NCBI GenBank assembly: GCA_964016885.1
Contig: OZ024740.1
Location: forward strand, 195,672,001 to 195,736,000
Reading direction: 5' to 3'
From: Eledone cirrhosa
Taxonomy: Eukaryota
DNA length: 64,000 nt
Shown here: one piece after another, positions 1 to 41,407 of the stretch
Numbering within the stretch: position 1 is the stretch's first letter
Layout of the letters: each line of letters begins with the position of its first letter
Notes under the pieces: model-generated
Database searches by the model: none
Told to the model about the DNA's origin: nothing
Seen by the model: only the letters and a program-made list of their open reading frames with translations
Program-made: the position numbers and the translations under genes

Positions 1-923
1 AGCCAGAATCAGTTCCCGTCCCACCCTTGCAAGCAGGGAAAAAGCGGACGTAAAATGAAATGATGATGATGATGATATATATAGGTGGATTCCTGATGTG
101 TATTGGGAGGTAAGCACAGTTAAAAAAGGTACTCAATACGCTAGTTGAGTAAAGGCATATTTATTTTATTATAGAAATGACTTCTACTGATGATTTCATA
201 TAAATGAAGCAGTTCTAGTCATGTAGTATTCATTTTATATAGAAATGAAAAAAATAATATAATAATATAAGAATGGTTTTTGTGATGAACAGAAGAGAAC
301 CACAGTTAAATAACATGCAGTCATTTCTATATGAAATAAATATATACACATATACACATACATACATATATATGTTATTTATCACTTTAGTTGTCAAGGA
401 TAGAGGTGATTGGTAGATCATTAATATCAATGTACTAAGAATGATCTACACTATTAATACAATGTATTTTCATGCATGCATTTGTCCTGTCTAAACTATG
501 CCCTAAGATCACGTGAATATGTGATTGATTTGCGTATGTTATTAGTACAGATTTTTTAGGTCTTTGACAAAAGATTTGTGAGGAACAGATTTATTTTTCT
601 TTATTGCTATGTATTAAATGAAATATCATCAAAATCTGTGAAACCATACTTTAGTTGGTACTTCTGGTAGAAGAATTACAAAAAAAAATTGATGCACACT
701 TTGTTTTCTTCAATAGAATTATTGAGAAGAAAAAATGAATTTTAGAAATTTAGAAGCATTTCATAACTATAACATACATGAATACGAAATACAAATTTAA
801 ATAAGTTTAACTATTTGGAAGCCTGACAATGTGTGCAAGATTAAAAGTGCCAAGATAATAGGAGTTATAGAGAATAAAGGACTGAGAAAAGAGTGAGAAC
901 GGTACCTTAGCAATTTTATTTAT

Positions 924-960
924 CTCAAATATTTTTCAGGTTTAAATCCATTCTCAAGAG
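924..960 (-). ncRNA. Candidate hammerhead variant (U3-A8 core)
   Basis: CUC-UUGAGAA-U-GG(AUUUAAA)CC-U-GAAA-AAUAUUU-GAG. Confidence 0.4.
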
Positions 961-2321
961 AATCCGTTGTAGGTATTTAAAGAGTAATCGGAAAAGAGTT
1001 GTTTTGCTTGCAGATTTAATTTAAATGTATGAAAAAGATGTTAAAATTTAACGTTTTGTACGTGTCCATAGTAAAATACGTGTGAGAATATGTGTATGAT
1101 ATATGTGTGTGTGCAGAGAAAGGCGTGTGAGAATATGTGTATGATAAATGTATGTGTGTACATGAATACATAACACACAAATACAAACACATATATACAT
1201 ATATATAATGTATCTTAACCCTTTTGATAACAAACCACCTGAAACTGGCCTTGGTTTGAAAGCTATTTATTTTTAAGTATTCATAGTTATCTAAAACCTA
1301 CTACAATTTTATGTAAGAGCCTTTGTTAAATTATGTTCCAAACATGAAATAAACAAGATAGTTAGATATATTACTAAATTACTCAAAATTCTTGATTATT
1401 GTCAAAATTATTTGAAAATCATAGGCAAAAGGATTAAATAAAACACTAGATTAACCAGACTGTCAGTGTATAAGACAAAATGGCTTGTAGTATTTAGTTA
1501 TGGCCCACTACATTTTGAGTTCAAATCCCATCAAGGTCAACTTTGACTTTTACTTTCCCAGTATTATAGTTTACACACTCTGGAACCACAATATACTTAT
1601 TCAAACTGCTATATCTAGGAGCATAAGCTCACTCAAATTACAGCTTTGCTATCTTGAAAAGAAAAGAAAACACATTAGATAATGTAGTTCTAGATATACA
1701 ACAGCCAAGAGAAAAACAGGATGGTCATAAATAAAACATCTTTGCCTATAGGTCTGCTAGATCAGGGCTATGTTGTAGCTAAACAACATACTGTTTCAGA
1801 ATAATGACATCATCAATGAGGTAGATATCAAGCTAAGAAAATTTAAGTCAATCATTCAACAGACTCCATATCTACAAGTGTAACTGAAGCACTCAGAGAT
1901 TGAAGCAACTGAATGTATAAGACTGTAGATATTCAATTAATTAAGTTCCCTTAACTGGTGCAGCCAATTTTGGGGGTGCCAATCATGGCATTTCAGTGGG
2001 TTTTAGAAATGCTTGGCCATGCCCCTCTCTCTAAATATCCAGTTTAGCCTGTCAGCAGAAGCAGTTATTGACTGAAAAGTGTCCCAGAGCCAGAAGTGAG
2101 AATCAGCTGATAACCAGTGTACTTGTCCATGCCTAAGGGTGCTGCTGTCAGATATCATGGATTTTTTTTCTACCAAAACACCCCAGTTTTGAGATAATGT
2201 TTCTTTAAATCCTGGATGACAGTACATCTGGTATTGAAGTAATGTTTCTCAAAAACACTTCACTCTATTTTCAAAAGAACATTTGATAACATTATGCCCA
2301 GTATTTAAATAACTCATCCTC

Positions 2322-2650
2322 CCACTTATTCCGGAGTGGGTCATGGGGGCAGAGTCCTCCAATACACCTTCCAGTAGGTCCTGTCAGAAGCAACCATTTC
2401 CAATTGATCCAGCTGGATCCCCAAGCAAAACCAGCTAAGCTAATGGATGTTATCCAACCAGCTTGCTTGGAGTCTACTCCTGGATCTCCTGTCAGTTGAT
2501 TTTGCTTGTAAAATCTGTCCAGAGATTCTTTCCTCAGACATTCTTACCACATGTCTGTAATATCAGAGCTGTGATCTCTCAATTCAGAGAAGTAGCAGCT
2601 TTACCTGGAGTAACTCTCTGATCTCTGAGCAACGCAATCTATCGAGTAAC
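2322..2650 (-). mobile_element. 3' end of a second RTE-type LINE family (also at 8108-8637, 43822-44301 and 45402-45582)
   Basis: Four mutually similar segments (gggcagagtcctc...ctgtcagaagcaacc...gatgttatccaaccatc). The reverse strand reads GRPR.RWLDNI...LLPR/P. Confidence 0.8.
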
Positions 2651-4398
2651 ATTACTTTAAATTGTTTCACTCTACTTTCAAAGAGACAATATAACATTTC
2701 TTCAAATTAAACACAGAATTTTATCAATAGTAGTTTGTATTCCAAGCAATAGCTGTGTTATCTTATCTCTAATAAAGGCATTTTTCTCCACACACTAGTG
2801 AAGTCCTAAACAGATTTTTCTAGTATCTACATCATTGATGAAGTAGTAGTTACATGAGCCAAGAAGTCATGTAAAGTCAAATTGGTTGAGCCATCAAAGC
2901 AATGGATTAAATGTCTTATAGTATTTGTTCTGAGTTCAAATCCTGCAAGAGTCAACTTTGTCTTTCACCCTTTTGAGGTTGATAAATAAAATACCAGTAC
3001 ATGGCAGTGGATTGGTTGAATTGTTAGAGTGTTGGACAGCATACATTGAGCTATTTTTTCCAGCTCTGCGCATTCTGGATTCAAATCCCATCAACTGTTA
3101 CTTGCAAAATGGTGATATGATAGGACTGGGGCCCCTATTATTAAAATACCTATGAAACAACCTCATGGGAGATCTGCTCAGGTGTGATCTGTAACAACAA
3201 TATCATATTCTTCATTATCCATACTTATTGCTACACAAATGAGTCTTCCATAGTAAGTATAATTTCAGAAAATGTTTTGAAGAATAGCAAAAGATGTATT
3301 TCAAAAACACCTTTAAAATATTAGAATTGATCTAAATATTGTGATTCTGTTCACAAAAAGCACCAAAATATTTGAGGACAATAGAATAACAACCATAGTA
3401 ACAAGAGATAATCAAAACAGAAGTTTTGGTTGAGAGTCTGGGATGGTTGTTTCACCGAAACATTGCTATTACCAGCTGTCTGTTACCTAGAATAAATTAT
3501 ACATATATTTGGTAAACATTTCCCTCATTTGGAAAAAAAGAACTACTGATAAGACTAAATATTGGTTCACAGCAGTCAAAAGAACAAAGTATAATTGCAG
3601 TAAAAAAAAATGTTTATAATTGACTTTCTCATCTGTTATGAAAATAAACAGTGAATATATAAATATATATATTTCTTTCAAAGACACCAGGGACAAATAG
3701 ACAAACACCAGTTTTGATTAATGTATTTTTTGTTAACCCTTTATTTACAAAGTGATTATTTGTATATTTTATGTTTTTCTTCTTTCTTTTGTTTCGCATA
3801 TGTTGCTGTTATGTCAGTACCATAGTTTATAAAACAAATGGTTAGAGTTAGATGGCAAGATTATTTTTGTTTATTTAATTTTAAAAGATTTCCTTTTTGT
3901 TTTGTTTTGTTTTTCGGGGTTTTTTTCTACATTTTAACAACAAAATATATTTCTATAAGATTGTCGCTTTTACTATTTTGTTTATTTTTTTATTTTATCT
4001 TTTTAAGAAACTTCAGAAAAACAGTTCACCAACTATATGAAGCTATTGTTAAAAACACAATTCTTTATCTCCTCATTCAAAAGTTTCAGTAAATTAAATT
4101 AAAAATTTTCTTACAAGAAATAACATAAGCCATTCAGAAAAATCACTGCATCCAATTATAATGCAAGCCAGCATGGCCATAACATAATTCTTTAAACTCA
4201 TAAAGAACTAAAGATTGCTTATAAGATTTTTATCCTTTAAACTTCTAAAGAAATAAAGAAGGTAATAACATATTTTATCCTAAACACGATATCATAGGAA
4301 AAATATCAATAATGTAAAAGAAATATAAATAGATATATATATATATCACATCCACACATAAATCATCATTTATGCAACTGCTTTTAAATATGTCTATA

Positions 4399-39959: not shown

Positions 39960-39967
39960 TATATTTA

Positions 39968-40519
39968 TGTGTGTGTGTGTGTGTGTGTGTGTGTGTGTGT
40001 GTGTGTGTGTGTGTGTGTGTGTGTGTGTGTGTGTGTGTGTGTGTGTGTGTGTGTGTGTGTGTGTGTGTGTGTGTGTGTGTGTGTGTGTGTGTGTGTGTGT
40101 GTGTGTGTGTGTGTGTGTGTGTGTGTGTGTGTGTGTGTGTGTGTGTGTGTGTGTGTGTGTGTGTGTGTGTGTGTGTGTGTGTGTGTGTGTGTGTGTGTGT
40201 GTGTGTGTGTGTGTGTGTGTGTGTGTGTGTGTGTGTGTGTGTGTGTGTGTGTGTGTGTGTGTGTGTGTGTGTGTGTGTGTGTGTGTGTGTGTGTGTGTGT
40301 GTGTGTGTGTGTGTGTGTGTGTGTGTGTGTGTGTGTGTGTGTGTGTGTGTGTGTGTGTGTGTGTGTGTGTGTGTGTGTGTGTGTGTGTGTGTGTGTGTGT
40401 GTGTGTGTGTGTGTGTGTGTGTGTGTGTGTGTGTGTGTGTGTGTGTGTGTGTGTGTGTGTGTGTGTGTGTGTGTGTGTGTGTGTGTGTGTGTGTGTGTGT
40501 GTGTGTGTGTGTGTGTGTG
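39968..40519. repeat. Pure (TG)n microsatellite, about 550 bp
   Basis: Uninterrupted TG dinucleotide run. Confidence 0.98.
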
Positions 40520-40722
40520 GTATTAAGTTAGACATGGCCTGGGCCAATACTGGCCGAAAGTTATCAAAGTTTTATATATATATATGTATATAGTTCAAAA
40601 TGACAAACAAACAAACGCAGGAGTCAATGGTACAGTGTTTTTAGCGTCATGCTTGGTGAGAATGGGGGGGTTTTCCGATTCCGCCCTATCCATTCCCTCA
40701 ATCTTTCTAATTTCTCATTCTT

Positions 40723-40758
40723 TCTTCTGATGAAAGACTAGCGTCTGAAACGTTAAGA
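40723..40758 (+). ncRNA. Candidate minimal type I hammerhead ribozyme (Penelope type)
   Basis: UCUU-CUGAUGA-A-AGAC(UAGC)GUCU-GAAA-CG-UU-AAGA, with palindromic AACGUU in place of stem III. Confidence 0.72.
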
Positions 40759-41407
40759 CCCTCTTCCAACTATTTCAAGCGTTTAATATATTTCTTCCAT
40801 ATACTGTACCAATTGTGTTGTTATTTCTGTTTACCTTATATATCATCATCATTTTACGTCCGCTTTTCCCTGCTTGCAAGGGTGGGACGGGAACTGATTC
40901 TGGCTTGATTTCTACAGCTGGATGCCCTTCCTAACACCAATCTCATTTACAGTGAGTGCTGGGTGCTTTTTTTCCGTGGCACCTACACATTCACTTTACA
41001 GTGTGGGTTGGGTGCTTTTTTGCCATGGCACCTACACGTCCACTTAAATATATATATATATATAACGTGACAACCTGTCTAACCCATGCAAGCGTGGAAA
41101 AATAGAAATCAATCATCAGCATTATCATCATTTAATGTCTTACAAGAATAAGTAGAATATGATATACGTACATATATATGAACAAATAATGTAACAGCCA
41201 GTATATGCAAGGAAGATAACTCGTCCAGGGAGAGAACTCATGCGTACTGTAGAACTAACGTAACTTGAAATGCATGTTAGGAGTACTGTAAGGAGTACTC
41301 GATACTTCCCCTAGTCTGTTATGGCTTACTAGCTTTATACGGACGTTTAAATTGAATAAATAAATAAGGAATATCGTTTACAGTAATAGTATAACACAAT
41401 TCTCAAA

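Follow-up and report, generated by a model that had tools for sequence, protein, structure and literature searches.

A 64,000-nucleotide (nt) stretch of the Eledone cirrhosa genome (assembly GCA_964016885.1, contig OZ024740.1, positions 195,672,001–195,736,000 of the forward strand; hereafter the window, in whose coordinates its features are given) raises the question of what kind of element disperses minimal hammerhead ribozymes (HHRs) through a genome, and why several of them lie at the turn of a palindrome. The window belongs to a 443-Mb contig in a genome of 3.0 Gb, and a reading of its letters alone (the sequence-only reading) had listed seven type I HHR loci in it, regarded as a population of non-autonomous mini-elements, either retrozyme-like or derived from Penelope-like elements (PLEs). 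Comparison with copies elsewhere in the genome makes it very probable that five of the loci are short, mostly decayed HHR-bearing ends belonging to four families of repeats, and that three of these families are joined to PLE open reading frames (ORFs) at other places. The class itself is already known, since PLE ends are established carriers of hammerheads and are frequently inserted as inverted pairs; what is added here is the scale on which hammerheads occur, and a sharp 5′ limit in two families.

All of the sequence strings quoted in that reading were found where it had placed them, and five of the seven loci are real copies of type I HHRs, other copies of their families carrying the complete ribozyme. 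Judged by sequence motifs, they represent two Hydra-type families, C (187 and 34181) and D (924), one Neptune-type family, B (40723), and one ORF-less unit, A (16134, with its mirror at 16308). They had been described as mostly unrelated outside the core, which is incorrect for 187 and 34181, both being family C. Of the other two loci, the string at 3435..3467 (+) has a core mismatch and no relative (its one match is itself), and is probably a chance occurrence or a very old copy. The string at 17704..17757 (+) is a possible old HHR, on which the evidence is undecided; it passes the descriptor with a 3-base-pair (bp) stem I, and has two weak relatives, one of which retains CUGAUGA and stem II although its loop differs. 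No further relatives of either were present in 1.19 Mb of sampled loci (designated by L numbers below).

Whether such motifs could be chance matches in AT-rich DNA was addressed with descriptor counts. The window alone is weak evidence for HHRs because most of its copies are decayed: a strict type I descriptor finds one or two intact motifs (40727 and 17716) against 0.03–0.15 in 40 local dinucleotide shuffles, the copy at 40723 being the sole family member to pass, and permitting one core mismatch gives 2 motifs against 0.8 in 15 shuffles. A scan of the window with Rfam, a check suggested by the sequence-only reading, gave no hammerhead among the matches listed (150 of 185). Elsewhere in the genome, 39 stretches, each of 10 kb and placed at round coordinates (390 kb outside the window, a rough and non-random sample), searched with a type I descriptor that also accepts the U3-A8 variant, contained 38 matches versus 1.45 ± 0.92 in 20 shuffles. 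Eleven of these, all from one poly-A/T satellite (L122), were removed before density was estimated, and the remaining 27, spread over 13 of the 39 stretches, extrapolate roughly to 2 × 10^5 HHRs in the genome (bootstrap 0.8–3.3 × 10^5). Across all sampled loci, 339 HHR matches form 22 clusters, 14 of them with at least two members. Exact cores occur genome-wide 19,114 times for family C (a 35-mer), 2,279 times for family B and 62 times for family A, with no occurrence of the controls. The density in the genome-wide sample is strong evidence, and chance is refuted for families A–D. As a general account chance is therefore very improbable, even with the low relaxed count in the window in its favour, although it is likely for 3435 and possible for 17704. 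Together with the ORF linkage of families B, C and D, these numbers bear out the earlier claim that PLE-type hammerheads are abundant.

In linear copies of family C the ribozyme comprises a 6-bp stem I, CUGAUGA, a stem II of U-U plus 3 bp, GAAA, a stem III of 4 bp capped by an 8-nt loop, and GUA as the cleavage triplet, which replaces the fold originally drawn for this family. The 4-bp stem III with its 8-nt loop, and the U-U at the base of stem II, set it apart from the HHRs of the published survey considered below. Both sides are changed in three of the six stem I pairs across subfamilies, and covariation in this stem is above shuffles (17 cells against 8.3 ± 2.5; 4 of 500 shuffles), among 36 sequences, 27 of them distinct, whose relatedness can inflate the value. 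At two loci (L146, L147) the HHR and tail continue into an ORF encoding a reverse transcriptase (RT), linker and endonuclease (EN), broken by frameshifts or a stop. Sequencing runs listed for this pLTR–ORF junction included none from RNA. A third locus (L212) shows EN, ~2.7 kb of 3′ region and the HHR, together with a truncated copy in inverted orientation. Read by eye, the ORF pieces of L146 contain RWR and DKT, have CxCX5C as their linker, carry CxxC and CxH within a GIY-YIG-type domain, and lack CCHH. According to Craig et al. 2021 (PMC8557442), the Hydra clade is characterised by an RWK-type motif, DKT, a CxCX5C linker, CxxC and CxH, and the absence of CCHH, RWR in L146 standing where that text gives RWK. 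By these motifs family C is identified as a Hydra-type PLE, its 3′ ends inserted in (TA)n and its tail ~70 nt long. With an ORF of ~2.15 kb and the 3′ region seen in L212 it exceeds the <3 kb that is typical, and not diagnostic, of Hydra elements.

In PMC8557442, Hydra-clade PLEs including Hydra-1_Obim share with family C the RWx and DKT motifs, the CxCX5C linker, the lack of CCHH and an HHR, as well as (TA)n insertion, inverted 5′-truncated copies and an optional tail. Hydra-1_Obim itself differs in having another protein and another HHR, family C being distinguished by its ~2.7-kb 3′ region and ~70-nt tail. Four short HHR strings (families A, B and C) and the start of the family C ORF were not found in the supplement of that paper, where line breaks could hide them. 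The window copies of family C are both damaged. In the first, 75..270 (+), an inverted tail arm (to 186) joins CUGAUGA at 187, and the HHR has decayed, with G at A15.1 and a mismatch in stem II. The second, 34139..34247 (both strands), is a hairpin that turns at ~34211–34217, its minus arm complete but with U at C3, and its plus arm stopping before the cleavage site; the foldback described at 34181–34247 is real (28 of 30 positions). A remnant of another Hydra-type PLE ORF was also noted, at L215:1976-3570.

Family B has a 3′ end fixed in (TA)n or (CA)n and a variable 5′ end. Walking upstream at three loci (L275, L290, L296) revealed an RT, a CxxC zinc-finger linker, GIY-YIG, and an untranslated region of ~500 nt, followed by the family B HHR, which by motif is the layout of a Neptune-type PLE; Neptune-clade PLEs share with this ORF the RT, a CX2-5CxxC-type linker and a GIY-YIG with CCHH-like residues, and an HHR in the 3′ end. 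The window copy, 40671..40835 (+), keeps the core in its HHR (40723–40758), with A-U as the first stem II pair versus G-C in most copies. It is not a foldback: the one proposed at 40600–40835 reduces to a 9-bp match, and the family B sequence starts at ~40671. Family D is older, with 239 first-look candidates at 77–87% identity and two exact matches. Its window representative is a pseudo-long terminal repeat (pLTR) remnant at 774..1165 (−), whose slightly decayed HHR (924–960) has a palindromic stem III and a core of the U3-A8 type, which PMC4209133 reports as a variant in Schistosoma PLEs. At L072 the family D tail runs unbroken into the start of a Hydra-type ORF. The window itself holds no PLE ORF detectable by tblastn with seven natural PLE ORF pieces as queries, as the sequence-only reading had stated.

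A published survey of type I HHRs gives a similar picture of many families per genome, mostly solitary copies from truncated PLEs with some opposite-strand pairs, and includes the extra base after A9, the palindromic stem III and the U3-A8 core. It counted 2,000–9,000 HHRs per genome versus ~2 × 10^5 here, a figure that is extrapolated and was obtained with another descriptor.

Family A is of a different kind. Its HHR is of the minimal, textbook type, with 7 bp in stem I and a palindromic stem III, and there are 1,555 candidates; copies form head-to-tail units of ~340 nt (L011, L018, L166), with two HHR-bearing units ~340 nt apart in L011 and L166, and in seven of the 11 copies (out of 30) that reach the head, the family's own tail precedes it. 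The window copy, 16101..16300 (−), has an intact HHR core (16167–16173) and a stem I weakened at its core-proximal pair; its head-to-head partner, 16308..16485 (+), is truncated inside CUGAUGA (without C3-U4) and ends in (TA)n. The foldback here is real, at 16104–16375 (68-nt arms, 88%). A detached family A tail piece at 15776..15814 (+) adjoins a (CT)n tract. In its organisation family A alone looks closed and ORF-less. Of the four families it alone suits a non-autonomous or retrozyme-like interpretation, and it is likely to be a non-autonomous unit moved in trans. Non-LTR retrozymes, described in a preprint (bioRxiv 10.64898/2026.07.22.740005) as derived from PLE pLTRs, resemble it in being ORF-less head-to-tail units whose monomers each hold a single type I HHR. 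Unlike them, family A, whose tail ends are of PLE type, is found mostly as monomers, partial tandems and inverted pairs; families B, C and D are not retrozymes. In L020 the 3′ end of family B is directly joined to the head of family A, possibly through an inter-family template switch.

It might be supposed that every family behaves in this way, as self-propagating mini-elements spread by short or circular RNAs. The ~340-nt units of family A, with their own tail preceding the head, would fit such a scheme, as would a tandem array of a further, retrozyme-like family at L115:8630-9700 (311-nt units with one type I HHR each, plus an inverted copy), and solo pLTRs with a promoter could be transcribed. 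Families B, C and D, however, run on into PLE ORFs; the short copies of family C (42 of 65) lack the TATA region and therefore a promoter of their own; and hairpin centres differ from one another. The proposal is thus quite unlikely for the families as a whole, and the non-autonomous population originally envisaged is wrong or unproven, with B, C and D best described from their sequence context as 5′-truncated ends of ORF-bearing PLEs.

Family C foldbacks with exact 11-nt arms and a spacer of at most 25 nt number 4,867 genome-wide (control 0). Among 24 hairpins examined closely, part of the set having been retrieved by similarity to the window hairpin, there are 17 distinct centres or spacers, and loop II is identical on both arms in 22. 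A long arm is paired with a short one in 19 and two short arms with each other in five, with no case of two long arms. The sampled copies also include partial tandems and truncated copies in inverted orientation, and one end may bear a tail. The hairpins show the inverted-copy and tail signature of PLEs (PMC8557442, PMC3846280, PMC11167929), and are not miniature inverted-repeat transposable elements (MITEs). Small palindromes in TA-rich sites, in thousands of copies, would suit MITEs of a DNA transposon with an incidental likeness to ribozymes, and HHR repeats are easily mistaken for them, as had been cautioned. That interpretation is scarcely credible given the unequal arms, variable centres, linear and ORF-linked forms, and stem I covariation; it was rejected, being contradicted by the ORF linkage, and the symmetric fixed termini and shared internal sequence of MITEs were not found. 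From their structure, the hairpins are taken to be inverted PLE insertions built anew on each occasion, by-products of single insertions and not, as had been thought, mini-elements in their own right.

Where these truncated copies begin is informative. In 65 family C copies (70 loci, examined among 100 listed places, minus five partner arms), 42 5′ ends lie within 12 nt of C3, with a mode at 6–7, the first base of stem I; 23 extend at least 53 nt, and none falls at 13–52 nt, an interval for which the rate of upstream truncation predicts about one. In linear copies a TATA box lies at about −36 (between −30 and −43), placing the pile-up ~30 nt after it. Among 41 tail-anchored incidental rows, 21 end at −9 to +7 and only two near the cleavage site, which indicates RNA templates that were for the most part uncleaved. 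In accord with this, unprocessed RNA was the main substrate of the anole Poseidon element in vitro, for which two RT start sites gave the tail (Frangieh et al. 2024, PMC11167929). Family 6, an unrelated U3-A8 element found in flanks outside the window (loci L091:1886, L134:6673, L142:3038, L202, L248 and L291), has TATAAAA at −72. In nine of its 12 loci the copy starts or turns between −34 and −48, two others are linear and one was not reliably scored. Its turn, ~42 nt from the core, is again ~30 nt after the TATA box, so it follows the promoter and not the ribozyme.

An alternative is that the position of the turn depends not on the transcription start but on ribozyme structure, or on self-priming from an antisense template as Arkhipova et al. 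2013 (PMC3846280) read palindromic PLE junctions; that paper argues that head-to-head palindromes need such a template. The family C pile-up does coincide with the 5′ edge of stem I, and one or two copies (L139 and window 187) turn as if complementary DNA (cDNA) had paired via a mirrored stem I. Against this, family 6 turns well upstream of its core at the same TATA distance as family C, and some family C copies (L239, L103) start at the pile-up base immediately following (TA)n and form no hairpin. Structure is expected to stop an RT at the 3′ side of a helix. Either cause is accordingly rather doubtful, and the pile-up is inferred to mark the transcription start.

Abortive PLE insertion with run-off at the transcription start is a probable explanation of the whole, with the balance tilting slightly towards cDNA run-off at the 5′ end of uncleaved RNA. 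A pLTR promoter would yield sense RNA starting at or just before the HHR. The GIY-YIG endonuclease would nick (TA)n, and cDNA would be primed at one of two tail sites, by analogy with the anole element. The RT would begin just downstream of the ribozyme and reach the RNA 5′ end after ~70–140 nt. Joined to the target, the run-off cDNA would leave a stump; were it to snap back, or were two cDNAs from opposite target strands to join head to head, a hairpin would result. Long copies would require transfer to the 3′ repeat and continued synthesis, and copies extending beyond the promoter would need strand transfer or a tandem or circular template. Hairpin centres with 3–4-nt loops fit snap-back, and those with both arms at the start, or with extra bases, fit joining of two cDNAs; the data do not tell the two apart. 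The hairpins could on this basis be fossil strong-stop products, of an RT that starts near the 5′ end of capped, uncleaved RNA and either runs off or is rescued by strand transfer, a proposal on which we are evenly divided. The ribozymes are predicted to cleave their own RNA, those of families A, B and D as dimers, in keeping with the dimeric cleavage via palindromic stem III proposed originally. The 4-bp stem III of family C departs from that scheme, and this hammerhead may be able to fold as a monomer.

Several points weigh against this interpretation. The Hydra and Neptune labels come from motifs read by eye, without an RT tree; Pfam recognised none of three Hydra ORF pieces, and the family B RT scored below its cut-off. 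Searches with two flanking PLE fragments (Pfam) and the RT (PDB) likewise gave nothing significant. The ORF link of family D is a single locus, and although 93% of its pairs are retained, covariation (6 cells versus 4.0; 75 of 500 shuffles) is not above shuffles. Stems II and III of family C were fixed by the search pattern, which precludes a covariation test, and minimum-energy folds of single natural copies of families B, C and D did not give the active fold. The 65 family C copies were required to have an exact core, were all drawn from one contig's first 30 Mb, and include the non-independent pairs L088/L089 and L268/L269. A TATA-like motif is present in family A without any pile-up, 26 of its 30 copies reaching at least 47 nt upstream; in its 30 loci there was no linked PLE ORF, only unlinked fragments, and no master element was found for it. 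Family B, in which no TATA box was seen, has loosely clustered ends (15 of 30 at −83 to −106). A tail was found in families C and A, and not in B.

Related observations exist in the literature. A PLE transcript is known to begin in the upstream pLTR (PMC6765202), and the fly PLE promoter is TATA-less and internal (PMC2377424). PMC3846280 and PMC11167929 have in common with the present data head-to-head palindromes, a pLTR TATA motif and two RT starts; the text covered does not tie the turn to the transcription start. A squid genome paper gives 235 Rfam hammerheads, and Craig et al. 2021 one Hydra family with an HHR. In the literature searched, no report was found that ties PLE palindromes or hammerheads to the transcription start, nor were these families, their density or the promoter-linked 5′ limit found, repeat databases and subscription papers lying outside that search.

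Two further hammerhead families were observed. Family 4 (L013:530 (−), L053, L091:503, L101:641 and L224) lies downstream of a Pfam GIY-YIG ORF in L101, and in several copies the start or turn is close to a motif, presumably resembling a YY1 site, that precedes the core by ~65 nt. Family 3 (L003, L116, L150 and L189) has a palindromic stem III and an upstream motif like that of family A, which we take to be octamer-like. The window is otherwise rich in microsatellites, LINE (long interspersed nuclear element) ORFs and short interspersed nuclear elements (SINEs). LINE copies, assumed here to be RTE-type, lie at 37433–39385 (−) and 51889–54795 (+), with fragments at 28088–28546 and 46387–47545; two of these, in opposite orientation, share 97% identity over 1.56 kb and have open frames of 650 and 783 amino acids. 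Copies of a SINE-like repeat occur at 2930, 10856, 13481, 18124–18649, 20962, 25447–25753, 34529–34837, 41480, 60024–60367 and 62193, several in tandem pairs of ~200 nt. Rfam gives a transfer RNA-like match at 61620–61689, where ARAGORN calls no transfer RNA, and its microRNA rows, among the matches listed, are mostly in simple repeats. Long trinucleotide-derived repeats with low-complexity open frames lie in opposite orientation at 9700–10700 and 11370–11930.

By rough extrapolation, the E. cirrhosa genome would carry an intact hammerhead about every 15 kb, with at least a dozen families represented, and family C offers a metazoan PLE hammerhead that is predicted to fold without a dimer. If true, the strong-stop reading would explain head-to-head palindromes without an antisense template, in a genome with some 2 × 10^5 hammerheads. 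The 5′ limit ~30 nt after the TATA box in two families bears on how PLEs copy a full element from an RT start near the RNA 5′ end, and on whether ribozyme cleavage belongs to the PLE cycle.

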